A stretch of 32,000 nt of DNA from Erysipelotrichaceae bacterium (GTDB lineage Bacteria; Bacillota_I; Bacilli_A; Erysipelotrichales; Erysipelotrichaceae): NCBI GenBank assembly GCA_963676105.1, contig OY781039.1:1410001-1442000 (forward strand), given 5' to 3'. A program made the translations under genes and the position numbers. Below, piece after piece: positions 2,378-32,000 of the stretch (its first letter is position 1; each line of letters opens with the position of its first letter). The notes beneath the pieces are model-generated. The model was not told the DNA's origin, did not search any database, and was given only the letters and a program-made list of their open reading frames with translations.

Positions 2378-2414
2378 AGGATATGAAGAGTTTAATCTCT
2401 ACTCTTCATATCCT
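2378..2414 (-). terminator. Perfect 13-bp hairpin between the SBP and permease genes (attenuator or mRNA-stabilising stem-loop)
   Basis: AGGATATGAAGAG (2378-2390) pairs perfectly with CTCTTCATATCCT (2402-2414) across an 11-nt loop. On the minus strand it is followed by ATATTTTCGGAG, which contains the SD of the next gene. Confidence 0.55.
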
Positions 2415-2426
2415 TAGTAAATAAAA

Positions 2427-8930: not shown

Positions 8931-9060
8931 AGATTAATACCCCTTTTCTTAAAGTGGTCTTATAGAATTTAGAAAGAAAATCAAGTGAAACAGGTCTGGT
9001 CTATAATCTATTCCGAAAGGGTAGATTTCTTTCTAAATCTATCGACACACACAGTATCAA

Positions 9061-9075
9061 TTAAAACGCTTTCAT
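9061..9075 (-). promoter_or_regulatory. cre-like (CcpA) operator candidate in the EIIC leader
   Basis: The minus strand reads ATGAAAGCGTTTTAA. Against the cre consensus WTGNAANCGNWNNCW it has one mismatch (A instead of C at position 14). Confidence 0.35.
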
Positions 9076-9175
9076 TGAAAAGAGCATTCTCTTGCCTTGC
9101 ATAACAACTTCAAAATTACAAAAATTACTGTCTGTTTTTTGAAGTTTTACTTCAGAAAATGATGATATTTTACAT

Positions 9176-9195
9176 AAAAAGAGCTTTCGCTCCTT
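9176..9195 (-). terminator. Weak terminator-like hairpin after the GH1 gene
   Basis: The minus strand reads AAGGAGC-GAAA-GCTCTTT followed by TTAT. This is a 7-bp stem (one G-U pair) with a GNRA loop and only a short free U tract. Confidence 0.35.
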
Positions 9196-11102
<1,907 letters not shown>

Positions 11103-11181
11103 AATAAATTCCTCCGTCTTCACTATTCTAATAAAGTTGAAACATTTTATGTTTAAACTTTACAATATTGAAAGAATACTT

Positions 11182-11213
11182 CAAAAAAGAGTCCTTGTTT
11201 ACACAAGAACTCT
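11182..11213 (-). terminator. Rho-independent terminator after the upstream GH1 gene
   Basis: The minus-strand RNA is AGAGUUCUUG-UGUAAA-CAAGGACUCU (10-bp stem including one U-G pair) followed by UUUUUU. Confidence 0.75.
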
Positions 11214-11219
11214 TCATAA

Positions 11220-12650
<1,431 letters not shown>

Positions 12651-13202: not shown

Positions 13203-13221
13203 AAAAGCCTCAATGAGGCTT
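13203..13221. terminator. Bidirectional terminator between convergent genes
   Basis: AAAGCCTC-AAT-GAGGCTTT forms a perfect 8-bp stem, flanked by A-rich sequence 5' and TATTTAT 3'. Confidence 0.65.
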
Positions 13222-13234
13222 TATTTATGATTCA

Positions 13235-15010
13235 TTACAGGACTTTTAAACTTCCATCAGCATTTCTTGCATATTTCTTCAAGAAATCCCAAGCAATTTC
13301 TAACTGTCTGTGATCAAGTCCATGAGGCATTCTTTTAGCGAATACTAATTCATAAAGTGATAATTTTTCACTATCATTGCTATTCCAAACATGGTGAATA
13401 AAACGTTTATCATCTCCTTGAACTAAAACTTCATCTGATGTCATGCCTGTTTCAATTTCAGGATTCATGACATACGGTACAACAGTAATATTATTGTAAT
13501 TCTTCCAGTAATCAAAAGTTTTTATCCAGTCTGCTTCTGGATCTTCAATTGGCCATTTACCATCAATTAATCCAGTTTGTTGAATGACAGGCATTCTATA
13601 ATCATATTTTGCTTTTTTACTGTCTGCCATTTTCTTAGTTTTAGATTCATTCTCATCCTTTGATAAATCTAGATCAAGAATAACAGTCTTTGGATTAAAC
13701 ATTTTCATTAATGGCTGTGATTGCAGTAATGTTTGTAGATAACCCCAATGTGGTGCATTATTAGGTGCTGCTGCTGCGAAAACTTCAGGGAATGCGCATG
13801 CTAATGCATTCGTAAACATTGAACCCATTGAGAACCCTGATACATAGATACGACTTTCGTCTATTTCGTAAGTTTCTTTCATATGGTCAATCAATGCCAT
13901 CACAAAATCAAAATCACTTGGCAATGCATAATGATCCCAAACGTTCCATCTATTTTCAATGGCTGGTTTTGGATAAACAACAATAAAGCCTTCTTTTTCT
14001 GCGATTTCATGCCAGTTACTTTGTTCAGCACCATATAGCGGAATACAGTTAATTCCATGGAAGAAGAACAATAGCGGTGCTTTTTCTTTGGAGTTTTTCA
14101 ATCTCTCTGGAACAAATTCATACCATGTATGTTTAAAGTTGTCATTTACCCCTAAACTTGAATCAGCAACGTGTGGAATAAATCCCTTTTTATAAAAATC
14201 CGTTCGATCTTGATATTGACCATGTGTATCAATTTGCCATCTTCTTGTTTCAGAGAGCAGTAAATCCCATGCTTTTTTAATTTCACTTTCGCTTAATTTT
14301 TCTTTTGAAACCATTAATTTAATATTCTTATTATTTGCATTCACAAAAACATCAAGATTATCAATTTCATAAGATATTGATACCTCATTTGCTTCCTTAA
14401 GTTCTTCTGAAGCTACTAAGTTATCACAAACATAAGAAACAACAGGTGCCTTAAAACTTAATTTTTCTACGTTGTAATCTTGGGCAAAACTTCCAAGCAA
14501 CATTCCTGAAACATGTTTAGGTGTCTCTTTAGCCATTGTATAAATCATTGAAGATGAAGATTTAGTTGCACCAACATAGAAAATCATTCCATTAAATCCA
14601 GCTACATGTCCTTTACTTAATGGTAACGAGGCAAAACATCTAATTAGATATTGAATATCATCTTCTTTGCTATTTTCTTGGTTATAGTTCCAACCATCGT
14701 CCGTTGGGTTTGGGAACAAAAGAACAAAGTGTTTTTCTTCTGCTAACTCGTCGAGTTTCAAATCTTTCATTAATTTTTGAGCTGATGCTTCATCATTTTC
14801 ATCTCTAAGCACCATCAAAACTTGCGCTTGTTTTGGATGATAACAGCCTGACTTTGGAATGTAAGTATACATCGTTCTGTCAGTACCTTTTTGAGTGTCT
14901 ACTGAGTTTTCAGGTATCCAATCAATCTTTAAATCACCTTTTACTTCGTCTAATACTAAGCTTCCACCATATGGCGAAAATTTTTCAATTTCATTCATTC
15001 TATCGATCAT
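13235..15010 (-). CDS. Two-domain alpha/beta-hydrolase esterase (PHB-depolymerase/feruloyl-esterase-like C-terminal half; degenerate N-terminal half)
   Basis: 591 aa. The C-terminal half has APLLFFFHGINC...GFIVVYPK...RIYVSGFSMGSMF (GxSxG nucleophile elbow)...FAAAAPNNAP. The N-terminal half repeats the fold pattern (VLMVLRDEND...FVLLFPNP...MIFYVGATKSS), but the elbow reads GATKS. No signal peptide. AAGGGAG sits upstream of the ATG. Confidence 0.65.
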   Translation of the reverse strand: MIDRMNEIEKFSPYGGSLVLDEVKGDLKIDWIPENSVDTQKGTDRTMYTYIPKSGCYHPKQAQVLMVLRDENDEASAQKLMKDLKLDELAEEKHFVLLFPNPTDDGWNYNQENSKEDDIQYLIRCFASLPLSKGHVAGFNGMIFYVGATKSSSSMIYTMAKETPKHVSGMLLGSFAQDYNVEKLSFKAPVVSYVCDNLVASEELKEANEVSISYEIDNLDVFVNANNKNIKLMVSKEKLSESEIKKAWDLLLSETRRWQIDTHGQYQDRTDFYKKGFIPHVADSSLGVNDNFKHTWYEFVPERLKNSKEKAPLLFFFHGINCIPLYGAEQSNWHEIAEKEGFIVVYPKPAIENRWNVWDHYALPSDFDFVMALIDHMKETYEIDESRIYVSGFSMGSMFTNALACAFPEVFAAAAPNNAPHWGYLQTLLQSQPLMKMFNPKTVILDLDLSKDENESKTKKMADSKKAKYDYRMPVIQQTGLIDGKWPIEDPEADWIKTFDYWKNYNNITVVPYVMNPEIETGMTSDEVLVQGDDKRFIHHVWNSNDSEKLSLYELVFAKRMPHGLDHRQLEIAWDFLKKYARNADGSLKVL

Positions 15011-15024
15011 ATAAATTCTCCCTT

Positions 15025-16185
15025 CTAAGAAACTTTTGCAGAAGTTGGATTATAGAGACCGATTGTTTCGCGTTTTTCTCCCATAATATCCTCTTCGCTA
15101 AATTTCATATATTTAATTCCTAATCGATTATTATAAGCAAATACTAAATTCAAGTTATCGTTTGTATCTTGCATCAAATATGGATATTCATATTGTTTAT
15201 TATTTGTTCTATTCTCAGAACCAATAAAACCTTCCCCTAGCTCAACTACTCTAATCATTGGCCAAGTTTTTCCACCATCTTCTGACAACGCTATTGCAAC
15301 GGGACATCTTAAGCCTGGCCATGCAACTTTCCCAAAAGTTGGATCTGTTAAACTTGACGGATTATAAGCAATCGCCAGTCTTCCGCTATTTAATTTAATA
15401 GTACTAATACTTGAGTTATTATTTGGCAAGTCTGTTTTGATTGGTTCAGACCACGTATCCCCATTATCTTTTGATTCTGATTTGTACACATTATCAGCAT
15501 ATCTACTTCTCATAAATGCAACTAAATGTTTAGGCTCTAATTCAATAACATTGGCGTGAACACGTCCATTACTATTAGGCATTTCAACTGTTTTCCATGT
15601 ACTGCCTTTATCATCTGAAATTCTAAACGCTGTTGGATCGCCTTCTAATCCTGATTCTGAATCAGTGCAAATCCAATTTCCAAAAATCCATCGACCACTA
15701 GATAAAACTTGGATTTCTTGTCGACAAAAACTACCTGGCTCATCAATTAATACCTCAGCTTCACTCCATGTTTTTCCATAGTCATAAGATTTTTGATACT
15801 TAATGACTGAAGTGAATTGCATATTATCTTTACCTTCAACACGACTTTCTTGTGAAGTGTACATAAGCCATACTGCTTTATCAGGTGCAATGAAGAATGA
15901 TGGATTCTGTTCACTTCTAGTGTCATCATTAGAAACTTTTACTGGAACTTCCCATTTATTGGAATCTTTTTCTAATCGTGCACAAACAATACTAATATCT
16001 GCACTACCTTCAAATGATCCTGCAAACCACGCACACAATGTATCTCCATTATCTAATTCAATTAATGTAGGAGCATGTGCAGTTGCGAATTCACCTGGTG
16101 GGATGATTGCTTCCAGTAAATCCATATGTTTATTCTTATAAATCTGACCATCAATCGTTAATCCTTCTAATTCTTTATATTTCAC
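15025..16185 (-). CDS. BNR/Asp-box repeat protein, sialidase-fold (putative cytoplasmic glycoside hydrolase; specificity unknown)
   Basis: 386 aa with four Asp-boxes (SxDxGxTW): SYDYGKTW, SDDKGSTW, SKDNGDTW, SEDGGKTW. GTG start with AAAGGAG 6 nt upstream. No signal peptide. Confidence 0.75.
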   Translation of the reverse strand: MKYKELEGLTIDGQIYKNKHMDLLEAIIPPGEFATAHAPTLIELDNGDTLCAWFAGSFEGSADISIVCARLEKDSNKWEVPVKVSNDDTRSEQNPSFFIAPDKAVWLMYTSQESRVEGKDNMQFTSVIKYQKSYDYGKTWSEAEVLIDEPGSFCRQEIQVLSSGRWIFGNWICTDSESGLEGDPTAFRISDDKGSTWKTVEMPNSNGRVHANVIELEPKHLVAFMRSRYADNVYKSESKDNGDTWSEPIKTDLPNNNSSISTIKLNSGRLAIAYNPSSLTDPTFGKVAWPGLRCPVAIALSEDGGKTWPMIRVVELGEGFIGSENRTNNKQYEYPYLMQDTNDNLNLVFAYNNRLGIKYMKFSEEDIMGEKRETIGLYNPTSAKVS

Positions 16186-16187
16186 GT

Positions 16188-17237
16188 TTAACTCCTTTCA
16201 TTCGCTAATTGAATTGCGTAGTCAATTGCATTCACTAAACTTAATTCATTTGCAGTACCTTTACCTGCTTGATCAAAGGCAGTTCCATGATCAACAGATG
16301 CTCTAATAATGGGTAATCCCAAAGTAATATTTACACCTGCAACTGCATCCCACTTTTGAGTTTCTTGATTATAAACAAAGCCAATTAGTTTCATTGGAAT
16401 GTGGCCTTGATCGTGATACATGGCAACAACAATGTCATACCAACCACCTCTTGCTTTAGAGAAGATTGTATCTGGTGGAACTGGCCCCTCTACATTTAAA
16501 CCAAGATTTTGAGCTTCCTTAATTGCTGGTTCAATCTCGTTTATTTCTTCTTGACCAAACATTCCGTTTTCTCCACTGTGTGGATTTAATCCAGCAACAC
16601 CAATTTTTGGATTTTCTATACCTAAAGATTTACACGCTTGATGCGCAATATTGATAACATCAAGCACACGATCCTTTTTAACTCGATCACATGCTTCTCT
16701 TAGTGAACAATGGGTAGAAACATGAACGACTCTCATATTTTCATGCGCCAACATCATGGTATATTTTTTGGTATTTGTCATTTGCGCATAAATCTCAGTG
16801 TGTCCATCAAAATGATGACCTGCCAAATTCATTGCTTCTTTATTTAATGCATTTGTTACAGTCGCATCGACCTCATTGTTATTAGCTAATTCAATGACTT
16901 TTTTGACATATTGAAATGCAGCGTTACCGGCTTCTTTTGAGACAACACCTTTTTTTAAAGTTTCAATATTTATTAAATTCATGTCGTAAACATCAATTGT
17001 TCCGTAATCAAATTTTGCATCTGAAACTTTTTGAACTGGATTAATTTTAAGTTTTCCATTTAATCCCACATATTGTAGTGCGTTTTCTAATACTTTAGCG
17101 TCACCTACAATTATTGGTTTGCATCGATCATATAAATCTTTTTTAGCTAATGCCTTCAAAGTGATTTCAGGACCTATACTAGATGGATCTCCTAATGTGA
17201 TACCTATTATCTTTTTTTCAATCATATTAGTACCCAA
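16188..17237 (-). CDS. PdxA-family NAD-dependent 4-phospho-hydroxyacid dehydrogenase (PdxA2-like)
   Basis: 349 aa. ITLGDPSSIGPEI N-terminal motif, HHFDGHTE metal-binding motif and YHDQGHIP motif, all PdxA hallmarks. The TTG start directly abuts the upstream stop (TAATTG). An alternative ATG at 17225 is possible. Confidence 0.8.
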   Translation of the reverse strand: MGTNMIEKKIIGITLGDPSSIGPEITLKALAKKDLYDRCKPIIVGDAKVLENALQYVGLNGKLKINPVQKVSDAKFDYGTIDVYDMNLINIETLKKGVVSKEAGNAAFQYVKKVIELANNNEVDATVTNALNKEAMNLAGHHFDGHTEIYAQMTNTKKYTMMLAHENMRVVHVSTHCSLREACDRVKKDRVLDVINIAHQACKSLGIENPKIGVAGLNPHSGENGMFGQEEINEIEPAIKEAQNLGLNVEGPVPPDTIFSKARGGWYDIVVAMYHDQGHIPMKLIGFVYNQETQKWDAVAGVNITLGLPIIRASVDHGTAFDQAGKGTANELSLVNAIDYAIQLANERS

Positions 17238-18140
17238 TTATTTCATTCCTTTTGCTTTGTTTTCTTTTAAAACAAGCTCTAACGCTTTAAGCCCTTCATC
17301 AGACAATTTATTAAATGGCGCTCGACATTCACCTACAGGTTGACCGAGTTTTGATACTGCCTTTTTAACGATTGTATTAGCATTCCCAAACTTAAACACA
17401 TTTCTAAATGATCTAATACTATCTTGATAGTCTCTAGCTTTATCAATATTCCCTGCTAAAAATTCTTTATAAATAGAAACCATTACTTCTGGATACACAT
17501 TTGCACAGCCAGCAACTCCACCTTGTCCGCCAGCTAATAAATTCCACAATATCAGTGAGTCATTTCCAGATAGGACAACAAAGTCTTCACGATCTCGAGT
17601 CTGTTCAATATATTGAAGCATGTTGTCAAAGTTACCTGAACTGTCTTTAACCCCCACAATATTTTTGATTTTTGATAGTCTTTTTACAGTAGCTGGTGCA
17701 ATTGCATTATTTGTTCTAGCAGGAATGTTATATAGCAAAATTGGAATATCTACTTCCTCTGCAATTCTTTTAAAATGTTCATAGATTTCATCTTGAGATG
17801 CAGATGCAAAGGATGGAGTAATAATGGACAAAGCATCTGCTCCTATTTTCTTTGCCATTTTAGATACTTTAATTGTGTCTAAAGTTCCAATACATCCAGT
17901 ACCCGCAATAACAGGCACTCTATGATTTACTTCTTTAACAATGATATCTAAGGCATCATATTTTTCTTTATCAGATAGAATATATCCTTCACCATTCGTT
18001 CCAAATGGGAAAAGTCCTTGAACACCTGCGTCTATTAATCGATTTACTTGATTCTTAAGTTCCGCTTCATTGATGGATTCATCCTCATTCATCGGTGTTA
18101 ACATAGGCACAATAATTCCATTAAAATTAATCATATACAC
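17238..18140 (-). CDS. DapA/N-acetylneuraminate-lyase family class I aldolase (pyruvate-dependent); substrate unknown
   Basis: 300 aa. GTNGEG motif (GxxGE), LLYNIPARTN (catalytic Tyr region), and IVGVKDSSGN (Schiff-base Lys). Confidence 0.8.
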   Translation of the reverse strand: MYMINFNGIIVPMLTPMNEDESINEAELKNQVNRLIDAGVQGLFPFGTNGEGYILSDKEKYDALDIIVKEVNHRVPVIAGTGCIGTLDTIKVSKMAKKIGADALSIITPSFASASQDEIYEHFKRIAEEVDIPILLYNIPARTNNAIAPATVKRLSKIKNIVGVKDSSGNFDNMLQYIEQTRDREDFVVLSGNDSLILWNLLAGGQGGVAGCANVYPEVMVSIYKEFLAGNIDKARDYQDSIRSFRNVFKFGNANTIVKKAVSKLGQPVGECRAPFNKLSDEGLKALELVLKENKAKGMK

Positions 18141-18147
18141 TTCCTCC

Positions 18148-19296
18148 TTACATTATTTCTAAAAACAATTTTCTAGCATCTTCCGCTGAGACTTCTCGAT
18201 AGTTATTAACAAGTAATCGTTTGACATCTAATCCACCCTCAATAAGAGCATCTAGATCTTCATCACCGATTCCGAACGCGCGTAAACTATTAGGTATTTC
18301 TAGTTTATTAATAAAGTAATCTAACTTGTTAATTACCCAATCTGCTTTTTCTTCAAGACTTAGTTCTTTACGCTCATCACTTACGCGATCATATACTTTT
18401 GCTAACTGAGGTAATATCGTTGGTGCATTAAATCGCATTACCGGTACCATCATCATGGCTGTAGATACACCATGAGGGATATGATATTTACCTCCAAGAG
18501 GATAAGCTAAAGCATGGATGGCTGTTGTACCAGAAGCTGTAATGGCTACTCCTGCATAGAATGCAGCTAACATCATTGCATTCTTCTCAGTCATCGCATC
18601 GATATCAGTACATGCTTTTTCAATATTATTAAAAATCAAATCTAGCGCTTCTAAAGCATACATATCACTAAAAGGTGTTGCCTTTTTAGATGTATAACAT
18701 TCAATCGCATGAGTAAGCGCATCGATCCCAGTAGATGCTGCAATTTTTAATGGCAGTTTCTTGATCATATCAGGATCCAAAATGACATAATCTGCAATCA
18801 TTGCATTACTTACAATACCCACTTTAAGTTCTTTTTCAGGAACTAAGACAATACTGTTTGGGGTTGCTTCCGAACCTGTTCCTGCGGTTGTTGGTATCAT
18901 AAGCGTTTTAATATTTTTCACAGCTTGACTTGGATCATCAATTAAATCACGAACCGTGTATTTATCAGTTGCTGCTACAGAAGCTAATTTCGCAATATCC
19001 ATAACACTTCCGCCGCCAATCGCAATAATTAGATCGGCATTATGATTTTTAAAATCGTCGATAACCTCTTGAGCTTGATCACATGATGGCTCTACTGGAA
19101 GACTATTGAAAATAGTGTATTCCTTATTTGCTTCTTTAAGACTATTCAAAACTGTGTCAATAAGACCTAAACTTTGAATCGATTTATCTGTAAAGACCGC
19201 AACTTTATTGACTGCCTTTACAATCTCATCTACATTCTCTAATGCATTTTCGCCACTGTAGATTAAACCTGGCATTTTAAGATTAAATTGTTTCAT
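18148..19296 (-). CDS. Iron-containing (group III) alcohol dehydrogenase
   Basis: GGGSVMDIAK nucleotide-binding motif, with metal-ligand His motifs ALTHAIE and HALAYPLGGKYHIPHG. I placed the start at ATG 19296, which has GGGAGG 7 nt upstream. The track start at 19311 would translate through that SD. Confidence 0.85.
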   Translation of the reverse strand: MKQFNLKMPGLIYSGENALENVDEIVKAVNKVAVFTDKSIQSLGLIDTVLNSLKEANKEYTIFNSLPVEPSCDQAQEVIDDFKNHNADLIIAIGGGSVMDIAKLASVAATDKYTVRDLIDDPSQAVKNIKTLMIPTTAGTGSEATPNSIVLVPEKELKVGIVSNAMIADYVILDPDMIKKLPLKIAASTGIDALTHAIECYTSKKATPFSDMYALEALDLIFNNIEKACTDIDAMTEKNAMMLAAFYAGVAITASGTTAIHALAYPLGGKYHIPHGVSTAMMMVPVMRFNAPTILPQLAKVYDRVSDERKELSLEEKADWVINKLDYFINKLEIPNSLRAFGIGDEDLDALIEGGLDVKRLLVNNYREVSAEDARKLFLEIM

Positions 19297-19315
19297 GAAT
19301 GTACCTCCCAATTTA

Positions 19316-19762
19316 TTAATCTTTCTTTATTTTAAATACTATTTTTTCACAATTATTTACTGGATCAGATTTCGCACAAAGGTGTGCTTCGTTAGGATAA
19401 AAGACAACAAACTCATTTTCTTTCACCACGATATCCTCACCTTCACCACTATAGTATTGTGCATCCTTCTCACTAATGTAATCAGTAATCGGATCCAATG
19501 AAGTGTTCATACTGAATTCAAATCCTTCTAATCCTTTTAGAATTAAATGAACATCAATATAATTTTGATGTGATTCAAATCTTTCAGTTCCATTAACTCT
19601 AGTCTCAATACTTTGGCAGAAATAGAAATTTTCCTGATCTTCTGTCCACTTTTTACCATCAAATAGACTAAAGTCATTTGCTAAAACAAAATCACAAAAC
19701 GGTTTTAATTCAGGATTGTCATTTAAAACTTCCTGAATATTTTCTATATTATTCTTAATCAA
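19316..19762 (-). CDS. YhcH/YjgK/YiaL (DUF386) family protein, cupin-like; possible sugar-acid anomerase
   Basis: 148 aa. The size and sequence pattern (MIKNNIENIQ...FESHQNYIDVHLILKGLE...VVFYPNEAH) match the DUF386 beta-sandwich family. It overlaps the upstream esterase gene by 8 nt. Confidence 0.6.
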   Translation of the reverse strand: MIKNNIENIQEVLNDNPELKPFCDFVLANDFSLFDGKKWTEDQENFYFCQSIETRVNGTERFESHQNYIDVHLILKGLEGFEFSMNTSLDPITDYISEKDAQYYSGEGEDIVVKENEFVVFYPNEAHLCAKSDPVNNCEKIVFKIKKD

Positions 19763-21371
19763 TTATTGTCACCTCTTTATGTTTGTTTTTTCGTTTAAAT
19801 TTTTTCATAAACTCCCATGCTGCTCTACTTTCATCCCATATAGCTCCATGGGGCATGTCTTTCATTATGATAAATTCAACTAGCTTATCTTCATTTGAGT
19901 TAGTATAGACTTTGGTCTTAAATCGATTACCCTCAGTATATGATTTGTCTTGAGTATAGAATTGACTTGGATCAATCTTATCTTCTTTAACACAGTGATT
20001 TATTTCATATAAAACTTTTAATTCTTTATCACGTAATAGACCTGCTTTGACATCATTGTCACCAATAATTAATTGGAAAGGCATTTTATATCCACTATGA
20101 ATAAATTCTGGATGAAACACATAACTAGCAATATCTAGTTTTTCACACTCAATAATTGATGGTCCATTCCATGCAGAGGCTGCTGCAAATAAATGTGGTT
20201 TTAATGAAGCTTGTTGGCAAGTATATATGGCTCCATTAGAGAATCCACTAAGATATACTCGCTCTACATCATATGAATACTTTTCTTTCATATCATTTAG
20301 AATCGATTCAATGACTTCTGCATCTCTTTCAATCAGCCAGATGTTATCAATTGAATCAGGAATAACTAGAATGAAAGCTTTTGTCTCATCTGCTAATTTG
20401 TCCCAGCCATTCTTCTCAGCAAATACCCAACTTGGTTCGCCTCGACCGTGTATGCTAAATACCAATGGTAAACCTTTAACATCCTGTTCATTTAAACCTT
20501 TAGGCAAATAAACTGTGTAAGGGTATTTTTTATTATTAAGCACCACATGATGATGTTTAAAATATTTAGTTTTGTAGTAATCAATTTTCCCCGTATAAAG
20601 TTTTATTGTTCCATCAGGACTATTTTTCCAACGAATAATTTTATTGAAGAATTGTTCAACTATTAGTTTAGGAACGATTCTCTCATAGCCTGTGTGACTA
20701 TAAGAAGTACGTATTTGTTGTGCAGGTTCATCTATATTATGATGTTTAACCCACGTAATTTCATGATTTTGTTCAATCGTTTCAATCATGCATTTATTGA
20801 TCTTTGAAAAATATTTGTAAGTCTTATTAGAATATTTTGTTTTATCAAATAACCAAATTGCTGAAGGTAGTTCATTATTCTTAACTTTATAATCTATCGA
20901 AGGATTTTTAACTAACCAGTGATCACTGAATAGTTCAGCAGAATCGAAATCATTTGCTCCACCTTTTACCAGTGCTGATGCAGCGAATAGATTTGAGTGT
21001 TTTACTAGAACATTCCCAAGATAATCTGCCCCTTCTTCATACCCAACCGCATAAATCATCGTCTCCCATAACCATAAGTATCCATTTCTTCCCGGGATAC
21101 TTTTACCACTAACAGACTTAAAATTATTTTTTTCTTTTTTATAGGTTTCTTTTAGTCTATCTATCGAACAATCTTTCCATTTATTTTTAATAATTGGTGC
21201 AATTATGACTGCCCCATTATTTTCCACAACATCCTTCCAACCTGTTGTTTCAACAAATGATTCTAGATCTAAAGAACTTTTTGCATATGCCTCTGGAGCA
21301 CAAATAAAAATTGTTTGTACACAATCGATATCGCACTTTGTTGAAACATATGAATAGAAAGTCTGTTCCAT
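19755..21371 (-). CDS. Two-domain alpha/beta-hydrolase esterase, paralogue of 13235-15010
   Basis: The C-terminal half has LPLVFSIHGRGE...AFILVIPD...RVYLSGFSNGAIY (GxSxG)...FAAASAWNGP. In the N-terminal half the equivalent elbow reads GYEEG. I placed the start at ATG 21371, which has GGAGG 7 nt upstream. The track start at 21383 is a TTG lying within that SD. No signal peptide. Confidence 0.65.
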   Translation of the reverse strand: MEQTFYSYVSTKCDIDCVQTIFICAPEAYAKSSLDLESFVETTGWKDVVENNGAVIIAPIIKNKWKDCSIDRLKETYKKEKNNFKSVSGKSIPGRNGYLWLWETMIYAVGYEEGADYLGNVLVKHSNLFAASALVKGGANDFDSAELFSDHWLVKNPSIDYKVKNNELPSAIWLFDKTKYSNKTYKYFSKINKCMIETIEQNHEITWVKHHNIDEPAQQIRTSYSHTGYERIVPKLIVEQFFNKIIRWKNSPDGTIKLYTGKIDYYKTKYFKHHHVVLNNKKYPYTVYLPKGLNEQDVKGLPLVFSIHGRGEPSWVFAEKNGWDKLADETKAFILVIPDSIDNIWLIERDAEVIESILNDMKEKYSYDVERVYLSGFSNGAIYTCQQASLKPHLFAAASAWNGPSIIECEKLDIASYVFHPEFIHSGYKMPFQLIIGDNDVKAGLLRDKELKVLYEINHCVKEDKIDPSQFYTQDKSYTEGNRFKTKVYTNSNEDKLVEFIIMKDMPHGAIWDESRAAWEFMKKFKRKNKHKEVTIID

Positions 21372-21389
21372 AGATACCTCCAAAAATAT

Positions 21390-21419
21390 ATGCTAGGGTC
21401 CTTTTGTGAACCCTAGCAT
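21390..21419 (-). terminator. Intra-operon terminator or attenuator hairpin
   Basis: ATGCTAGGGT (21390-21399) pairs perfectly with ACCCTAGCAT (21410-21419) across a 10-nt loop. On the minus strand it is followed by ATATTTTTGGAGG, a U-tract running into the SD of the esterase gene. Confidence 0.55.
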
Positions 21420-21437
21420 GAAAAATTAAATTATTTA

Positions 21438-22715
21438 TTAACCAAAGAAAGCAACTGCTAAAACACTAAATAATACAATTTTGCCAAACCAAACTGGGAT
21501 TGTAAATTTCCAGAATTCGGTAAGTTTATATTTACCCATACCAAATGTAAGTGCAGGCATACCATCAATAGGCATAATGAAATTAATCCATGCAGATAAT
21601 GTACATACAATAGCTACTGGAACTGGACTAAATCCATATTGCATACTTAGCGCAATACCAATTGGTGCTGTAACAAATAATGAACCAAAACTTGCGCCTG
21701 TGAATGTAGCTAAAATACTTGTTAAGAATGCAAACACTAATACAATAGTTAATAAGCTAGGACTTGCCCCAAGCATACCAGCTACTTGTGCGCCAATATA
21801 TGCAGATAGACCAGAATTATTCATAGCTGCAGCAACACCAATAACAGATGCCATCATGATCATTAATGGTGAGAACATATTTCCTAAGAATTCTTTAAAT
21901 GAAATTACTTTAGCAACTAAGAACACACCAGCTAAAACCATAGGAATTGAATAACCAATTTCTCCTGGAAATCTTGATAAGAAAATCATTGAACCAAGAA
22001 GAATTGCATAACCTAAGTAAACTAAATTTTGTTGAGAACTAGAAAGAACTGGTGTAAATCCTTCTTCCTTAACTTCAGTTGTAGCTGCTTTTTCAACATT
22101 GCGAGCTGGCAATAATCTATGCCCAACAAATACCCAAACTAAATAAAGGGCAGAGAAGATTAAATTCATATAAACAATATTCATTGTGCTAATCGGACCA
22201 CCAGTGTAACCTGCTGACTCAACAAGACCACCAGCGATAGAAGCGAAGATTACTACCGAAGTAGGTAGCCACATACTTGCTTGTGTTGCAATAGCTGCAG
22301 GTAAGATAATACGAGCAGTTGGTAGTTTATCATTTGCAGGAATTGTTGCTACGATCCCTAATACCAATACATAAAATGCTGTACCAGTAATAAAGTTACC
22401 AACAACCATAACTCCAAAAATTAAAACAAGTAAGCCTTTCACGCCACCTTTTGTGGCAAACTTGGCTAAAGCTTCTTTAATATCATAAATAAGCTTTGTT
22501 TTATTCAGAGCTGCCATTGCAACCATAAATCCCATAATCAATATAACGTTTTTGTCTACAAAACCACTAAACGCTGTAGCAACATCTACTTGGTTAGTTA
22601 GAACAAGAAGTGCAGCCGCAATTAGTGGAGGCGCACCAAATGGAAGCTTATCACTGATAATAACAGCTACCATTCCAACAACAATTAATAATGTAATAAT
22701 CATTGAACTAGTCAT
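21438..22715 (-). CDS. Ion-transporter-superfamily anion permease (SLC13/DASS- or CitMHS/ArsB-like)
   Basis: 425 aa, highly hydrophobic, roughly 11-13 predicted helices, with a hydrophilic central loop (ARNVEKAATTEVKEEGF) typical of the two-repeat IT-superfamily architecture. AAAGGAG sits 6 nt upstream of the ATG. Confidence 0.6.
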   Translation of the reverse strand: MTSSMIITLLIVVGMVAVIISDKLPFGAPPLIAAALLVLTNQVDVATAFSGFVDKNVILIMGFMVAMAALNKTKLIYDIKEALAKFATKGGVKGLLVLIFGVMVVGNFITGTAFYVLVLGIVATIPANDKLPTARIILPAAIATQASMWLPTSVVIFASIAGGLVESAGYTGGPISTMNIVYMNLIFSALYLVWVFVGHRLLPARNVEKAATTEVKEEGFTPVLSSSQQNLVYLGYAILLGSMIFLSRFPGEIGYSIPMVLAGVFLVAKVISFKEFLGNMFSPLMIMMASVIGVAAAMNNSGLSAYIGAQVAGMLGASPSLLTIVLVFAFLTSILATFTGASFGSLFVTAPIGIALSMQYGFSPVPVAIVCTLSAWINFIMPIDGMPALTFGMGKYKLTEFWKFTIPVWFGKIVLFSVLAVAFFG

Positions 22716-22914
22716 AAATTTCTCCTTTCAAATTTAAATTTTGACTTTTATAAAACCATTTATATATTTCTTTATCATTCAAAATAGCTTTATTCTTTTC
22801 ACAATCGTAAGTTATATAATCGTGATGTATGCAACTACTTAAACTAATGTTTTTATGACCTATATATTCATCCTCCTCTTTCCTCTTTTGTGTATTTGAA
22901 GGGCTAAAGCCCAT
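22708..22914 (-). CDS. Hypothetical small protein (68 aa); may be non-coding spacer
   Basis: The ORF fills the kinase-permease gap almost exactly: it starts 6 nt after the kinase stop and ends 8 nt inside the permease gene. An open frame of this length is unusual in such AT-rich sequence. However, there is no SD and I recognise no motif. Confidence 0.3.
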   Translation of the reverse strand: MGFSPSNTQKRKEEDEYIGHKNISLSSCIHHDYITYDCEKNKAILNDKEIYKWFYKSQNLNLKGEIYD

Positions 22915-22920
22915 ATCAAT

Positions 22921-24177
22921 TTATTTAGATTCTTCTCGAATTAAGTCAGCTATTTTAATGAAAATATCTTCACTTCCAAATCCACCAGATTTAGAGATAA
23001 TATTTAAGCTTCTTCCTTTATAACTGATTTCAGAAACCACAATGCCTTCGTCAATTTCTCTATATGGTGTAATCGTCGATAATTGACATTCTTTTAAGAA
23101 TTGAAAGAGGACATCTCCACCCATCAAGAACACATTCCCCTCAAAACCTTCATCAATTATCTGTTTTCCAATTTTCCCAATTGTTCCAGCAATTCGCTCT
23201 CTTGTTTCTTCAATATTTAAACCTAGTTCTTTTGCATGTTTTTTGGTTGCATTTGGTTCCTGCACACCATTCGCATTAATAATCGTCAAATCATTTTTAT
23301 CAAGATCATCAAGTACAGTTGTTTTTAGGTCTAAAAATTCTGAGCTATTTGTCCAATTTAAATCTAATTTTTGAATAGGACTTATGATGAACTCTCTAAT
23401 CCCTTTTCCCCTAGCATATTCACATTGTTTTAGAGAAATTGGATTTATACTTCCACAAATAATGATTGTTTTCTCTTTTAATTTTTTTTCATTTTTCTTA
23501 TGCTCATTAAACTTAATAAATGTAGGTAATATATTTGCTAAACCTGAGCAACCAGCAATGAATTCCATTTCACTTTGTTTACTAAGCATTTCTACAGTAT
23601 TTCTAATATCACTACTTGTTCTAGAATCATAAACAATTATTCCTGATTCATCCGAATTTGGTTTTGAATCAGTAGGAACAGTTTTGACTTTAGTTTTATA
23701 GGAATCATTTAGAATATCTGATACTAACGAATGTTTAACTGGATCAAACGGGTCATTTGCAAATACCGATTCTGCAACTTCAACTCCATCGATATAATGT
23801 ATTCCATTTATGGTTAGTCGATTCATCTGTGGGTAAGAAGGAATAAAGTGAATTCTAGACTTGTTACTTGCATCTAACATTGCTTGTAATTCTGCTCCAA
23901 CATTTCCACGCATCGCAGAATCTGTTTTTTTGAATATAGTTTTTATTCCTAATTCTCTCGCCTTTTTTGTTATTTCATAAACAATTGAATAAGCTTGTTC
24001 TGGCTCAGCATGCCTTGTCTCAGTATCGATAACCATAACTTCTATATCAGAAGTAAAATTATCTAGTCCATTATCAACATCAAAGGATATTTTAGTCACC
24101 GCACCAATTTTTGATAATTGAACACTTGTATCAAGAGCTCCTGTAAGATCATCAGAGATAATAAGTAGTTTTTTCAT
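22921..24177 (-). CDS. Four-carbon acid-sugar kinase family protein (DUF1537; OtnK/DtnK/DenK-like)
   Basis: The N-terminus MKKLLIISDDLTGALDTSVQLSK is the family signature (xxDDxTGAxD). The length of about 420 aa fits the two-domain DUF1537 architecture. I placed the start at ATG 24177 with AAAGGTG upstream. The track start at 24183 is a GTG inside that SD. Confidence 0.75.
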   Translation of the reverse strand: MKKLLIISDDLTGALDTSVQLSKIGAVTKISFDVDNGLDNFTSDIEVMVIDTETRHAEPEQAYSIVYEITKKARELGIKTIFKKTDSAMRGNVGAELQAMLDASNKSRIHFIPSYPQMNRLTINGIHYIDGVEVAESVFANDPFDPVKHSLVSDILNDSYKTKVKTVPTDSKPNSDESGIIVYDSRTSSDIRNTVEMLSKQSEMEFIAGCSGLANILPTFIKFNEHKKNEKKLKEKTIIICGSINPISLKQCEYARGKGIREFIISPIQKLDLNWTNSSEFLDLKTTVLDDLDKNDLTIINANGVQEPNATKKHAKELGLNIEETRERIAGTIGKIGKQIIDEGFEGNVFLMGGDVLFQFLKECQLSTITPYREIDEGIVVSEISYKGRSLNIISKSGGFGSEDIFIKIADLIREESK

Positions 24178-24282
24178 AATCACCTTTCATTAAACAAAAA
24201 TGTATGCGGTTTCTTTTCTACATCGAAAATACCATGAACTTAATCGATTAAAAATTTTGTTTGTATAAAAAAGTGTTTATAT

Positions 24283-24300
24283 TTGAAACAATTGTTTAAA
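24283..24300. promoter_or_regulatory. Palindromic operator candidate in the divergent kinase-operon/regulator intergenic region
   Basis: TTGAAACA-AT-TGTTTAAA contains the perfect 12-bp palindrome AAACAATTGTTT (24286-24297). It lies just upstream of the putative -35 element of the regulator promoter. Confidence 0.4.
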
Positions 24301-24305
24301 TAATG

Positions 24306-24335
24306 TTCATAATTCATTATTTTTATGTTTATAAT
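24306..24335 (+). promoter_or_regulatory. Candidate sigma-A-type promoter of the regulator gene
   Basis: TTCATA (24306-24311), an 18-nt spacer, then a perfect TATAAT (24330-24335), about 80 nt upstream of ATG 24418. Confidence 0.4.
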
Positions 24336-24417
24336 GTGTTCGTAACCAAAATCAAACCGCTTACATTTTATAGAATTACTTATATATCGTTCATTTTTGA
24401 AACAGTTGGAGAAAAAT

Positions 24418-26199
24418 ATGATTAATAGCATTCGAATTTTAACAATTGCTCCCTATGAAGGCATGAAAACATTATTCTCAAAACTCGCAAATGATTATAA
24501 AAATGTTGAACTTGATGTTTTTGTTGGAGACTTAGACAAAGGTGTGGAAGCAACTCAACAAAATTTTCATTCAAATTACGATATTGTCATTTCTCGTGGT
24601 GGAACTGCTAAATTACTCAAGGAGCATATATCGTTACCCGTTGTTGAAATACAAACAACTGCCTTCGATATTTTAAGAACTATAAAACTTTCAAATGCAA
24701 GTAGTGATAAAGTTGCGATCGTTGGATTCCCAAATATTACGGATCAAAGCATCTTTTTAAAAGATGTTTTACCTATTGAAATTGACGTATTTCCAATTAA
24801 CTCGCAAGAAGAAACTGTTGAGATTTTGGAAAAGCTAAAAATCGAAAAATATGATTCTGTTATTTGCGATATGATTACTTACACTACCGCTTTAAGTCTG
24901 GGCTTAGATGCTTTTTTAATTACTTCGGGAATCGAAAGTATTAAGAGTGCTTTGGATACAGCTGTTCAATATTGTTCAAACAATGCTGAGTTACGTAGTC
25001 AAAATCATTTCTTCAGGCAGCTTACAAGTATTCGAGGAATAAAAACTGTCGTTTTTGATACAAATGGAAAGCTATTTTACTCAACTGTTTCAAAAGATGA
25101 TTTACCAATTTTTCAAACTTTAGAAAATTTGGTTGAAAACATAAATCTCGGTGACAAACATATCTTCCAATATCGTGTTGATAACTTGATTTACTCAGTT
25201 AATGCAGAAAGTTTTGTTTCCGATGAAAGCCAGTATATTGCCTTCTACATTCGTATTAGCAAAGCACCACTATCTGGTACAAAAATTGGAATCGAGTATT
25301 TAAACAAAAACGACATTGAAAAAAGCTTAAACGATACAGTCTACGCTTCAATTAACTTCTTCTCGCCTTATCAAAAAAACATTGATCTTGTAAATCAGTA
25401 TGAAAGACCTATTTTAATTACTGGTGAGGAAGGTACAGGTAAAGCAATACTAGCTAAAAAAATATACTTACAAAGCAACGTAAATAATCGACCCTTTATA
25501 CAAATTGATTGTGGTGTTTTAACAGATAAAGTTTGGGATTATCTTATCAATAACTCAAATTCACCCTTGTGTCACTACGATTCAACTATCTTTATAAAAA
25601 ACATGAATATGTTAAACGAGAAAAGACAGGTTGAGTTATGGGACTCTATTTCTATTATGGATGTCGCTAGGGGAAACAGGTTGATTATTTCAACAATTAA
25701 TAACTCCTCTCTAGCGCTTGATAAAGAATGGATAAATTATATAAATCAACTAAACTTCTATATATTTGATTTGCCTTCACTCCAAAAAGAAAATGGCAGA
25801 ATCCCAAATATTATAAATTTATTTCTAAATCAATTAAATCTAATGAATGAAAAACATGTTCTTGGATTCTCGAGAGAAGCAATTCTACAGATGCAAAACT
25901 TTGAATGGCCATATAATTACCTTCAATTTATTAGAGTTATGAATAATATATTCATGATAACTGAACAAACCATAATATCTTCTGATGAAGTAAAGAAGAT
26001 CTTAGAAAAGGAAAAATCTATCTTACATGTAGAATCAAAATCAACCTATAATTCACTAAATCTATCAAGGTCATTAAATGATATCAATAAAGAAATTATT
26101 CAAATCGTTTTAGATACTAACAATGGAAACCAAACTAGAACTTCAGAGAGTCTTCAAATTAGTAGAACGACTTTGTGGAGAATTATTAATCAAGATTAA
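24418..26199 (+). CDS. PrpR_N-domain / AAA+ (sigma-54-activator-like, degenerate) / Fis-type HTH transcriptional regulator
   Basis: The N-terminus ILTIAPYEGMK...YDIVISRGGTAKLLKEHISLPVVEIQTTAFDILRTI is the PrpR N-terminal sensor pattern. The central part ILITGEEGTGKAILAKKIY carries Walker A. The C-terminus GNQTRTSESLQISRTTLWRII is an HTH_8/Fis-type helix-turn-helix. I placed the start at ATG 24418, which has GGAG 7 nt upstream. The track start at 24397 is a TTG. Confidence 0.75.
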   Translation: MINSIRILTIAPYEGMKTLFSKLANDYKNVELDVFVGDLDKGVEATQQNFHSNYDIVISRGGTAKLLKEHISLPVVEIQTTAFDILRTIKLSNASSDKVAIVGFPNITDQSIFLKDVLPIEIDVFPINSQEETVEILEKLKIEKYDSVICDMITYTTALSLGLDAFLITSGIESIKSALDTAVQYCSNNAELRSQNHFFRQLTSIRGIKTVVFDTNGKLFYSTVSKDDLPIFQTLENLVENINLGDKHIFQYRVDNLIYSVNAESFVSDESQYIAFYIRISKAPLSGTKIGIEYLNKNDIEKSLNDTVYASINFFSPYQKNIDLVNQYERPILITGEEGTGKAILAKKIYLQSNVNNRPFIQIDCGVLTDKVWDYLINNSNSPLCHYDSTIFIKNMNMLNEKRQVELWDSISIMDVARGNRLIISTINNSSLALDKEWINYINQLNFYIFDLPSLQKENGRIPNIINLFLNQLNLMNEKHVLGFSREAILQMQNFEWPYNYLQFIRVMNNIFMITEQTIISSDEVKKILEKEKSILHVESKSTYNSLNLSRSLNDINKEIIQIVLDTNNGNQTRTSESLQISRTTLWRIINQD

Positions 26200-26210: not shown

Positions 26211-27479
26211 ATGAAATCAATTGCTATTAGTTTATTTGCGGTAACTTATGTCGCCTTGCTAGCTTTACCAAAATATAGATCATATATCGCTTTTGCATCT
26301 GCTACACTTTTTGTATCATTTGGATTATTACCGATATCTGAAATTATTCCTTCTATCGACTTTAATGTATTAATGATGATTGGTGGAACAATGGGAATTG
26401 TTTCGTTATTTATCGATTCAAAAATGCCATCACTCATGGCTGATTGGATTCTTGATAAAACCCCTAATGTAAAGTGGGCTATTATTTGGCTATCCATTTT
26501 TTCTGGGTTTATTTCAGCATTTATGGATAATGTCGCAACTGTTTTAATGCTTGCGCCAGTTACACTTCAAATTACTAAGAAATTAAAAATTAATCCAGTT
26601 CCTGCGATTATCGCAATCGCTGTTGCGAGTAATCTACAAGGTGCAGCTACACTTGTTGGAGATACAACATCCATTTTATTAGGTAGTTATGCAAATATGG
26701 ACTTTATGGACTTTTTCTTTATGGATGGTAAGATTGGGATTTTCTGGGTCGTTCAACTAGGAGCGGTTGCTTCTACTTTGGTTTTAATGTATTTCTTTAG
26801 AAAAGATACCCAACCTGTCCATATTACAGAAAAGACAAAAGTGACTGATATGTTCCCAACTTATCTTTTATTAACTATGATTTTATTACTTATACTTGCA
26901 TCCTTTGTACCTAATAAATTAGATATCACGAACGGATTAATTTGTGTATCATTATTAGCGATTGGTTTAATTAGGGATTATATGCCGGACCATAAAGTTG
27001 GTCGTATCGTTAGAACGATTTTAGAAATAGATTTTGATACATTACTTTTATTAGCGAGTTTGTTTGTCGTTATAGGAAGTATTACATATGTCGGATTAAT
27101 TGATGACATCGCAAATGTATTCGCATCAATTGCTGGTAACAACGTTTTCCTAATCTATACAATCCTTGTTTGGTTTTCTGTTATCGTCTCAGCCTTTGTT
27201 GATAATATCCCATACATCGCAACAATGCTTCCTGTTGTATCAGGTATTTCTGTTTCCATGGGAGTTGATCCAATGATCCTTTATTTAGGATTATTATCAG
27301 GTGCAACTTTAGGTGGTAATTTAACTCCACTCGGCGCGAGCGCAAACATTACTGCCTTAGGTATTTTAAGAAAAGAGAAACATCATGTTTCAACTCTCGA
27401 ATTTATGAAGATTGGTGTACCATTTACACTCGCTGCAGTTATCACGGGCTATGTCTTAATTTGGTTTATTTGGATGTAA
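26211..27479 (+). CDS. ArsB/NhaD-type (IT superfamily) anion permease
   Basis: 422 aa polytopic protein. FMDNVATVLMLAPV and AVASNLQGAATLVGDTTSILLGS are typical ArsB/NhaD/YbiR-type motifs. It starts 11 nt after the regulator stop, with GGAG upstream. Confidence 0.65.
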   Translation: MKSIAISLFAVTYVALLALPKYRSYIAFASATLFVSFGLLPISEIIPSIDFNVLMMIGGTMGIVSLFIDSKMPSLMADWILDKTPNVKWAIIWLSIFSGFISAFMDNVATVLMLAPVTLQITKKLKINPVPAIIAIAVASNLQGAATLVGDTTSILLGSYANMDFMDFFFMDGKIGIFWVVQLGAVASTLVLMYFFRKDTQPVHITEKTKVTDMFPTYLLLTMILLLILASFVPNKLDITNGLICVSLLAIGLIRDYMPDHKVGRIVRTILEIDFDTLLLLASLFVVIGSITYVGLIDDIANVFASIAGNNVFLIYTILVWFSVIVSAFVDNIPYIATMLPVVSGISVSMGVDPMILYLGLLSGATLGGNLTPLGASANITALGILRKEKHHVSTLEFMKIGVPFTLAAVITGYVLIWFIWM

Positions 27480-27495: not shown

Positions 27496-27515
27496 AACGC
27501 GAATTAATTCGCGTT
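27496..27515. terminator. Bidirectional rho-independent terminator
   Basis: Perfect 20-nt palindrome AACGCGAATTAATTCGCGTT, flanked by AAAA 5' and ATTTTTTT 3'. It sits between convergent genes and overlaps the stop codon of the minus-strand gene. Confidence 0.8.

Positions 27516-31072: not shown

Positions 31073-32000
<928 letters not shown>

Follow-up and report, generated by a model that had tools for sequence, protein, structure and literature searches.

What might a bacterium degrade with an operon in which a sialidase-fold protein and an aldolase of the dihydrodipicolinate synthase/N-acetylneuraminate lyase (DHDPS/NAL) family stand beside a DUF1537 kinase and a PdxA-family dehydrogenase? 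The question is raised by a 32,000-nt stretch of the genome of an Erysipelotrichaceae bacterium (GCA_963676105.1, contig OY781039.1, 1,410,001–1,442,000 of the forward strand), called the window below, to which all coordinates refer and whose open reading frames (ORFs) were assigned to families by Pfam and NCBIfam profile scans. Ten co-directional ORFs on its minus strand occupy 13235–24183 in the ORF list, and nine of them are backed as genes (Table 1). An earlier reading made from the letters alone (the sequence-only reading) had seen in them a sialic-acid-style front end joined to a back end for four-carbon acid sugars; its family calls all agree with the profile scans, and its description of ten ORFs, the distal seven overlapping or at most 14 nt apart, agrees with the ORF list.

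[quoted passage not shown] From the protein families and their context we lean towards this reading, if modestly; that the substrate is Dha specifically is a more tentative suggestion. The cluster itself, widespread and uncharacterised, amounts to an extension of the D-threonate pathway.

Conservation and Distribution of the Cluster

A scan seeded with the sialidase-fold (BNR) protein, with one genome per species, found orthologs at 62–71% identity in 433 species; 80 related loci were fetched and searched with the window proteins, and the 34 loci whose BNR gene is flanked by 7 kb or more on each side make up the well-flanked set. In 29 of these 34, the kinase, the iron-containing alcohol dehydrogenase (Fe-ADH), the DapA-like aldolase and the PdxA protein are all present, which is the co-occurrence that the sequence-only reading had proposed to look for; the other five hold one to three of the four, and no locus holds none. 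Counted singly, the kinase is found in 32 loci, Fe-ADH in 30 and PdxA in 33, with a gene order that is shuffled between lineages and with varying accessories (DUF386, transporters, “double” or BD-FAE-type esterases, a small VOC-like protein, a short-chain dehydrogenase/reductase). Recurrence of this gene set in several phyla puts the arrangement far outside what chance would give.

Full-length relatives of the BNR protein are 64–71% identical in Lachnospiraceae, Hungatella and other Clostridia, and 33–40% identical in proteobacterial clusters. Among the Firmicutes, carriers include Romboutsia, Holdemanella, Hungatella, Enterocloster, Ruthenibacterium, Faecalibacterium prausnitzii, Oscillospiraceae, Christensenellaceae and Caloramator; Succinivibrio and Brachyspira are found beyond them. 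Three contigs from metagenome-assembled genomes (MAGs) labelled Prevotella, Bacteroides thetaiotaomicron and Collinsella (L009, L027 and L071) carry BNR genes whose products are 64–70% identical to those of Firmicutes, with Firmicutes-like neighbours, which suggests mis-binning or recent transfer.

The cluster of E. coli E2348/69 is an island between glnS and nagE (NC_011601.1, 627456–636435), matched in 1048 of 5426 complete E. coli genomes (19%), always in single copy and on the chromosome, and among its RefSeq names are D-threonate kinase, D-threonate 4-phosphate dehydrogenase and sialidase family protein. Its proteins fall under locus tags E2348C_RS02980-03020, and it also includes a TerC-family membrane protein that has no counterpart in the window. 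The same set is carried by the Ralstonia solanacearum megaplasmid, a Pantoea stewartii plasmid, pSymB of Sinorhizobium meliloti 1021 (about 153.9–163.5 kb) and Agrobacterium pAtC58. Plasmid records with BNR homologs are mostly those of Rhizobium (128), Sinorhizobium (78), Pantoea (27), Ralstonia (21) and Agrobacterium (17), and for the remaining loci the source is mostly a sample of the gut or rumen of herbivores and omnivores.

Relatives of the aldolase, 70–74% identical, are also found in clusters without a BNR gene. In [Clostridium] symbiosum, a PrpR regulator is divergent from kinase-FeADH-DapA-PdxA-TAXI-DUF386; a third lineage has PrpR divergent from kinase-FeADH-DapA-PdxA-DUF386; and a Fusobacterium-like chromosome and plasmid have GntR-FeADH-DapA-2-hydroxyacid dehydrogenase-TctBAC-PdxA-kinase. 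The core is, thus, made up of the kinase, Fe-ADH, aldolase, PdxA and a carboxylate importer, and the sialidase-fold “front end”, which the sequence-only reading had taken as a fixed part, is an accessory since the core occurs without it. The additional gene of the Fusobacterium-like loci, a D-isomer-specific 2-hydroxyacid dehydrogenase (10922–11899 of L085/L088) between the aldolase and TctBAC, hints at a 2-hydroxy (reduced) acid as the compound imported there.

The Kinase and PdxA Back End

The kinase of the E. coli cluster passes the D-threonate kinase (DtnK) equivalog NF047819 (533.5 bits against a cut-off of 450), a model named for gammaproteobacterial sequences, and its PdxA passes the D-threonate-4-phosphate dehydrogenase equivalog NF002891 (680 against 583). 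The window kinase has D-threonate kinase as its best NCBIfam match, and its matches in the PDB are DUF1537 structures only. The window PdxA is nearer to structures of PdxA2/D-threonate-4-phosphate dehydrogenase (2hi1, 3e-88; 6e85, 1e-83) than to E. coli PdxA (1ps6, 1e-51), and we class it as PdxA2-type on that similarity. We propose the former as a putative D-threonate (tetronate) 4-kinase and the latter as a putative 4-phospho-D-threonate 3-dehydrogenase (decarboxylating) that would give DHAP.

Gene fusions occur as well. A kinase–Fe-ADH fusion of 804 aa is present in a Lacrimispora MAG (L036:1725-4139) and a kinase–PdxA fusion of 782 aa in a Succinivibrio MAG (L043:1382-3730), both of which could be assembly or frameshift artefacts; a 766-aa coding sequence of Ralstonia solanacearum (L093:6076-8376), annotated in a complete genome, combines a partial kinase match with a full PdxA match. 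As predicted proteins, these fusions tie the kinase to both of its neighbours, Fe-ADH and PdxA, in the proposed order of steps.

The Aldolase and the Alcohol Dehydrogenase

One has to keep in mind that DapA and NanA share the fold of this aldolase. The window protein just passes the DapA model TIGR00674 (222.7 against a cut-off of 206.15), the E. coli cluster aldolase stays below it (189.9), and the nearest solved structures of the window protein are true DHDPS. The sequence-only reading had allowed that the aldolase might prove to be a NanA specific for N-acetylneuraminic acid (Neu5Ac); the profile scores speak otherwise, with 138 against 382 for TIGR00683 and 160.8 against 281 for NF003164.

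In E. coli numbering, DHDPS relies on the triad Thr44-Tyr107-Tyr133 together with Lys161 and Arg138, the latter binding the carboxylate of aspartate semialdehyde, which is a four-carbon (C4) aldehyde-acid; NanA of E. coli has Leu142 at the position of Arg138, and the L142R exchange shifts NanA toward DHDPS activity. We aligned 47 orthologs of the aldolase and, in addition, eight sequences across phyla. The Schiff-base lysine K165, the catalytic tyrosine Y137, T48 and N49 are invariant, as is a GTNGE motif, in which an Asn stands at the position of DHDPS Thr45. R142, at the position of DHDPS R138, is Arg in 45 of the 47 orthologs and R or K in the eight cross-phylum sequences. Tyr107, on the other hand, is replaced by Phe (45/47 and 8/8), so that the DapA catalytic set is incomplete: the equivalents of Lys161, Tyr133, Thr44 and Arg138 are kept and that of Tyr107 is lost. 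In the loci examined, the gene always lies within a catabolic cluster with a transporter, kinase, alcohol dehydrogenase and PdxA2, not in a lysine or diaminopimelate context. By these features the enzyme is predicted to be neither NanA nor a true DapA, and to belong to a distinct DHDPS/NAL subfamily. The basic residue kept at the R138 position fits a four-carbon acid as the aldehyde product, and we propose a 3-deoxy-2-ulosarate aldolase that would yield pyruvate and a C4 semialdehyde-acid. For Fe-ADH, the closest models are those of lactaldehyde, 4-hydroxybutyrate and sulfoacetaldehyde reductases, none of which it matches above cut-off; a semialdehyde reductase is the proposed role.

Accessory Proteins and Transporters

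The AlphaFold2 model of the BNR protein (predicted local distance difference test 84.5, predicted TM-score 0.87) is a six-bladed sialidase propeller, and the best 50 Foldseek matches in the PDB are almost all sialidases of glycoside hydrolase family 33 (GH33), at TM-scores of about 0.65–0.70 and 17–18% identity. Sequence comparison is more reserved: the profile search against the PDB reaches only E ~1e-11, over residues 125–291, and the sole NCBIfam match is a glycosylhydrolase model at 20 bits against a cut-off of 175. The sequence does not place the protein in GH33, and the Pfam BNR_2 family takes in more than GH33. Across Firmicutes and the alpha-, beta- and gamma-Proteobacteria, 72 residues are invariant, among them H37, D63, R226, R228, R293 and Y334. 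No signal peptide is visible. We propose, from the modelled fold, a cytoplasmic ketosidase that may free the ulosaric acid from a glycoside or another bound form; it is presumably an accessory feeder of the core pathway.

The DUF386 protein passes TIGR00022 (78.5 against 45.5) and stays below the N-acetylneuraminate anomerase equivalog (58.6 against 160). It is 26% identical to the copy in the E. coli cluster, and such genes are found in about 30 related loci and also in BNR-less clusters. By homology, an anomerase or ring-opening helper for a 2-keto acid is proposed.

Each esterase had been read as a “double esterase”. The description holds for the C-terminal halves, which in both proteins give the only matches to esterases of the polyhydroxybutyrate (PHB)-depolymerase/carbohydrate esterase family 1 type and carry the alpha/beta-hydrolase motifs GFSNG (esterase 1) and GFSMG (esterase 2), and not for the N-terminal halves, which resemble degenerate copies without the GxSxG serine. 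The two are paralogs with 25% identity. Esterase 2 matches feruloyl and acetyl-xylan esterases in the PDB over residues ~290–440 only, and its homologs, at 48–49% identity, lie in loci of Ruthenibacterium, Christensenellaceae and Oscillospiraceae; the double-esterase family as such is present in 18 clustered related loci. No N-terminal signal-like hydrophobic stretch was seen in the translation of esterase 1, and both esterases are predicted to be cytoplasmic, accessory and lineage-specific.

Homologs of the first permease (21438–22715) are found at 36–55% identity in related loci, including 18 of the 34 well-flanked ones, and a full-length comparison with the permease of the E. coli cluster (SLC13 family in RefSeq) gives 40% identity; the protein is the predicted conserved importer of the system. 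Transporters vary among clusters (CitMHS-like/IT-SLC13/DASS-like, KdgT, TRAP DctQM, TAXI-TRAP, TctABC), and by family these are all of carboxylate type, di-/tricarboxylate families and KdgT, a 2-keto-3-deoxy-acid permease, included; some related loci have an Opp-ABC transporter. The second permease (26211–27479) has no counterpart in the 80 related loci and appears lineage-specific; it and the esterases are counted here as accessories. For S. meliloti, SMb20144 is given in one paper, with reference to Mauchline 2006, as an ABC transporter for “organic acids/alcohols”; were it the binding protein of this cluster, an inducer may already have been reported.

Proposed Pathway and Its Alternatives

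The substrate can be approached from the end of the pathway. If PdxA2 decarboxylates its substrate to DHAP, this substrate must be a 4-phospho-2,3-dihydroxybutanoate; going back through the kinase and the reductase, the aldehyde released by the aldolase would be 2,3-dihydroxy-4-oxobutanoate, and the compound cleaved would, therefore, be a 3-deoxy-2-heptulosaric acid. To our knowledge, the only natural one is Dha of RG-II. Fischer projections drawn by hand lead from D-lyxo Dha, through aldol cleavage and then reduction, to D-threonate, on which the known DtnK/PdxA2 pathway acts. [quoted passage not shown]

In the scheme that we infer, as to reactions, step order and substrate, from the observed families, conservation, modularity, aldolase residues, fusions and transporter types, the anion permease would import the acid or a small conjugate of it, two cytoplasmic esterases would, in this lineage, strip acyl or ester groups, the cytoplasmic sialidase-fold protein would free the keto-acid from its ketoside and the DUF386 protein would speed anomer interconversion or ring opening. 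The DHDPS-family class I aldolase would then release pyruvate and a C4 semialdehyde-acid (tartrate semialdehyde, D-threo-tetruronate), which Fe-ADH would reduce to D-threonate; the DUF1537 kinase would make 4-phospho-D-threonate, and the PdxA2-type enzyme would oxidise and decarboxylate it to DHAP. The order aldolase, reductase, kinase, PdxA had already been put forward from the letters alone and is now backed by the PdxA2 similarity, the E. coli equivalog scores, the residue at the R138 position, the fusions and the carboxylate transporters. The distribution of the carriers fits a plant-wall compound, and the plant-associated and gut habitats, together with the D-threonate stereochemistry, make Dha more plausible. 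Our literature searches found no paper on Dha catabolism or on the gene set as a pathway, in line with the earlier impression that the combination had not been described.

Several observations weigh against this scheme. Both window enzymes of the back end score below the D-threonate equivalog cut-offs (kinase 181 against 450, PdxA 349 against 583), and the kinase is only 22% identical to that of the E. coli cluster, so that their assignment rests on context. In the BNR protein, the invariant H37 stands, by motif reading only, at the position of the FRIP Arg of GH33, the first of the carboxylate-binding Arg triad; with His for Arg, it may not be a glycosidase at all. If the free acid is imported, as KdgT and TRAP transporters would have it, so highly conserved a cytoplasmic ketosidase lacks an explanation. 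We know of no ester groups on Dha in RG-II, which leaves the esterases with no obvious RG-II substrate. Dha is, moreover, a minor plant-wall component, and the core is found in [Clostridium] symbiosum, an amino-acid fermenter, and in a Fusobacterium-like genome, neither of which is known to us as a pectin user; their case needs either cross-feeding on free Dha or a commoner substrate.

The last point leads to the same chemistry acting on something other than Dha, be it another 3-deoxy-heptulosaric stereoisomer giving D-erythronate, an amino analogue giving 4-hydroxy-L-threonine, or an uncatalogued microbial or host acid. All the module-logic evidence applies equally to such a compound; the BNR-less cores, one of them with an extra 2-hydroxyacid dehydrogenase and TctABC, hint at a commonly available free acid; the aldolase is most like true DHDPS, an enzyme that takes the semialdehyde of an amino acid as its aldehyde partner; and DUF1537/PdxA2 pairs reportedly handle 4-hydroxy-L-threonine as well (Thiaville et al. 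2016). We still hold this alternative to be rather unlikely: no other natural 3-deoxy-heptulosaric acid or amino analogue is known to us, the E. coli copies specifically match the D-threonate equivalogs, and the plant-associated distribution points to a plant product.

Another way to read the locus would be to deny any shared intermediate and to see two independent modules side by side, a tetronate kinase with PdxA2 and the regulator on the one hand, an ulosonic unit of BNR, DUF386, aldolase and alcohol dehydrogenase on the other. The E. coli layout, where regulator-PdxA2-DtnK is divergent from ADH-aldolase-BNR-DUF386-permease, lends itself to this, as do the hairpin at 21390–21419, which could split the window operon, and Salmonella, which has DtnK/PdxA2 and is not known to have the other genes of the cluster. 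Yet in several phyla the four genes are found together, in changing order and whether or not BNR is present, the kinase–Fe-ADH fusions bridge the two supposed modules, aldolase and alcohol dehydrogenase alone would yield a dead-end alcohol, and no second catabolic route for the aldehyde is present in any cluster examined; we judge such a juxtaposition improbable. More improbable still is a variant sialic-acid (Neu5Ac, KDN) or Kdo operon in which BNR would be the sialidase or Kdo hydrolase, the aldolase a NanA-like lyase and the rest a salvage of side products. The BNR fold is indeed sialidase-like, DUF386 is related to the Neu5Ac anomerase and the E. coli island adjoins nagE-nagBACD, but these nag genes are core genes flanking the insertion site rather than island genes, and nanE, nanK, nagA and nagB families are absent among the scanned window ORFs, as the earlier reading had stated. 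Besides the failed NanA equivalogs, the aldolase has Arg where NanA has Leu142, the FRIP Arg is replaced by an invariant His (on the motif reading), N-acetylmannosamine, mannose or arabinose would not feed the kinase and PdxA2, and many carriers are soil and plant bacteria.

Comparison with Known Systems

The D-threonate catabolic pathway of DtnK and PdxA2, reportedly worked out by Zhang et al. in PNAS in 2016, is among the systems closest to the scheme: the two families are adjacent or fused here too, the E. coli copies pass both equivalogs and DHAP would be the product. The window proteins, in contrast, stay below both cut-offs, and the pair is joined to an aldolase and Fe-ADH, usually with DUF386, a carboxylate transporter and the sialidase-fold protein, so that D-threonate would be an intermediate and not the imported substrate. 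The logic of the first steps recalls the D-glucarate/galactarate pathway of E. coli, with the aldolase GarL, the tartronate-semialdehyde reductase GarR and the glycerate kinase GarK, where a keto-deoxy aldaric acid is also split into pyruvate and a semialdehyde-acid, with reduction and phosphorylation of the latter to follow. Its C6 substrate (giving C3 + C3) has one carbon fewer, and no decarboxylating step is needed; the enzymes, a class II aldolase, a beta-hydroxyacid dehydrogenase and a glycerate kinase, are unrelated to those of the window. The nan operon has the same three folds (sialidase propeller, DHDPS/NAL TIM barrel, DUF386 in NanQ/YhcH) and differs in the nanE/nanK/nagA/nagB genes that the window lacks, in an aldolase that here stays under the cut-offs of the NanA models, with Arg at the specificity position, and in its sialidase, as the predicted cytoplasmic BNR protein is 17–18% identical to GH33 and, by motif reading, without the FRIP Arg.

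In a review table, the RG-II enzymes of Bacteroides thetaiotaomicron include a GH143 Dha hydrolase (N-terminus of BT1020) and a Kdo hydrolase (C-terminus of BT1013). These release 3-deoxy-2-ulosonic or ulosaric acids from pectin and would supply or parallel the front-end step, a likeness that we draw by description only; they sit in polysaccharide-utilisation loci, and we know of no description of Dha catabolism downstream of them. The same gene set has been listed as GR 6 of avian pathogenic E. coli BEN2908 (PLoS One 2026, PMC12928451), with a CitT-like permease, an EbgC/NanQ-like protein, a COG4692 sialidase-like protein, a DapA-like protein, Fe-ADH, a DtnK-like kinase, PdxA2 and DeoR. That paper points to a comparable cluster in S. 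meliloti, treats the genes as uncharacterised, relates the kinase and PdxA2 to vitamin B6 and proposes no pathway. Beyond the GR 6 set, the window has two esterases and a second permease, and its regulator is of PrpR type instead of DeoR.

Organization of the Locus and Its Regulation

Table 1. Features of the locus in window coordinates, in the order of transcription for the minus strand.
Feature	Coordinates	Strand	Size and evidence
DUF1537 kinase	22921–24183	minus	420 aa; SBD_N 150 bits, NBD_C 65 bits
68-codon ORF	22708–22914	minus	68 aa; no family match
Anion permease, IT-superfamily	21438–22715	minus	425 aa; CitMHS 58 bits, DASS 44 bits (below cut-off)
Terminator-like hairpin, permease/esterase 1 gap	21390–21419	minus	12-bp stem, 6 G-C pairs, T-rich tail
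Esterase 1	19755–21383	minus	542 aa; polyhydroxyalkanoate (PHA)-depolymerase-type esterase 89 bits (NCBIfam, below cut-off), residues 284–520
YhcH/YjgK/YiaL (DUF386) protein	19316–19762	minus	148 aa; PF04074 97 bits
Fe-ADH, group III	18148–19311	minus	387 aa; Fe-ADH 151 bits, ADH_Fe_C 156 bits
DHDPS/NAL-family class I aldolase	17238–18140	minus	300 aa; PF00701 256 bits
PdxA2-type dehydrogenase (predicted)	16188–17237	minus	349 aa; PF04166 364 bits
Sialidase-fold (BNR_2) protein	15025–16185	minus	386 aa; BNR_2 195 bits
Esterase 2	13235–15010	minus	591 aa; PHA-depolymerase-type esterase 127 bits (below cut-off); Esterase_PHB
Palindromic terminator-like hairpin	13204–13222		between esterase 2 and a convergent flavodoxin gene
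PrpR_N-type regulator, divergent	24397–26199	plus	PrpR_N 157 bits, partial Sigma54_activat, HTH_8
Second CitMHS-family permease	26211–27479	plus	CitMHS 182 bits; co-directional with the regulator
Palindromic terminator-like hairpin	27496–27515		3' of the second permease

From esterase 1 through esterase 2, ORF coordinates give a spacing of −8, 4, 7, 0, 2 and 14 nt. The kinase probably starts at the ATG at 24177, with AAAGGTG just before it. The 68-codon ORF had been counted as a gene of the operon, a status that we reject: it has no Pfam or NCBIfam match, no tblastn match in the 80 related loci and no Shine-Dalgarno before its ATG, and the sequence between kinase and permease is probably a non-coding spacer of ~200 nt. 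Rfam gave no match to a riboswitch or other RNA in this spacer or elsewhere. The permease–esterase 1 gap is 54 nt long and holds the hairpin at 21390–21419, which may act as attenuator or partial terminator, or may stabilise the mRNA, and which makes transcription as one operon less than certain. The hairpin at 13204–13222 is the probable 3' end of the operon; together with the one at 27496–27515, it encloses the whole locus.

The divergent regulator is conserved with the cluster, its orthologs being divergent from the kinase in 44 clustered loci as well as in two BNR-less ones (L086 and L090); proteobacterial versions of the cluster have DeoR or GntR regulators instead of the PrpR_N type. The Sigma54_activat match covers only profile positions 12–64 of 168. 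The Walker A motif is kept in the regulator and its orthologs, and no GAFTGA loop is present in the window regulator or 44 orthologs; nor is there any −24/−12 promoter match (TGGCAC-N5-TTGCW, up to two mismatches) in 24184–24396. With neither the loop nor the promoter, we rejected sigma-54 control: on its motifs, the regulator is predicted not to be a working sigma-54 activator and to have a degenerate AAA+ domain beside its PrpR_N sensor domain and a Fis-type HTH, and these PrpR_N-type regulators appear to be a sigma-54-independent offshoot of the enhancer-binding proteins.

The remaining genes of the window are unrelated (MBL-fold protein, AraC regulator, flavodoxin, tyrosine phosphatase, DegV, chromate transporter). 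At 7650–12647 and 31097–31999 lie genes for a phosphotransferase system EIIC and for a cupin, together with two GH1 genes and one more GH1 paralog clipped by the window end, probably for beta-glucoside utilisation and unrelated to the operon. An Opp/Dpp-type ABC transporter (SBP_bac_5, two permeases, ATPase) occupies 1–4046. Because transporters of this type directly adjoin the clusters of Hungatella hathewayi, S. meliloti and Agrobacterium, it was weighed as a candidate part of the system; the Opp binding protein of the window is only 28% identical to that of Hungatella, and unrelated genes lie between the Opp genes and the operon.

Significance

RG-II is eaten daily and degraded by Bacteroides, and we know of no account of the fate of its rare acid sugars. 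According to a 2026 preprint, pathways that handle secreted RG-II products such as Kdo in other gut microbes still await confirmation. Defining how a C7 ulosaric acid is turned into pyruvate and DHAP would close this gap. If the proposal is true, D-threonate catabolism would also gain a natural source, D-threonate being the C4 remnant of Dha.

Taken in all its parts, the proposal is of an undescribed Dha pathway that would explain the D-threonate kinase/PdxA2 pair, with the cytoplasmic, invariant-His BNR protein founding a new family of ulosaric-acid ketosidases and with a cross-feeding trait spread across gut commensals (Faecalibacterium, Lachnospiraceae), about a fifth of the complete E. coli genomes, plant pathogens (Ralstonia, Pantoea) and rhizobia; we put this joint reading forward as a possibility, one that we would not call probable. 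It would correct the names of homologs that public sources call “4-hydroxy-tetrahydrodipicolinate synthase”, “PdxA” or “exo-alpha-sialidase”, and it would supply a role for the island that 19% of complete E. coli genomes carry, that of the enteropathogenic strain E2348/69 included, and that is also found in major plant pathogens and symbionts. Even with a substrate other than Dha, the cluster would stand for an unknown pathway that is widespread, self-contained and experimentally tractable.

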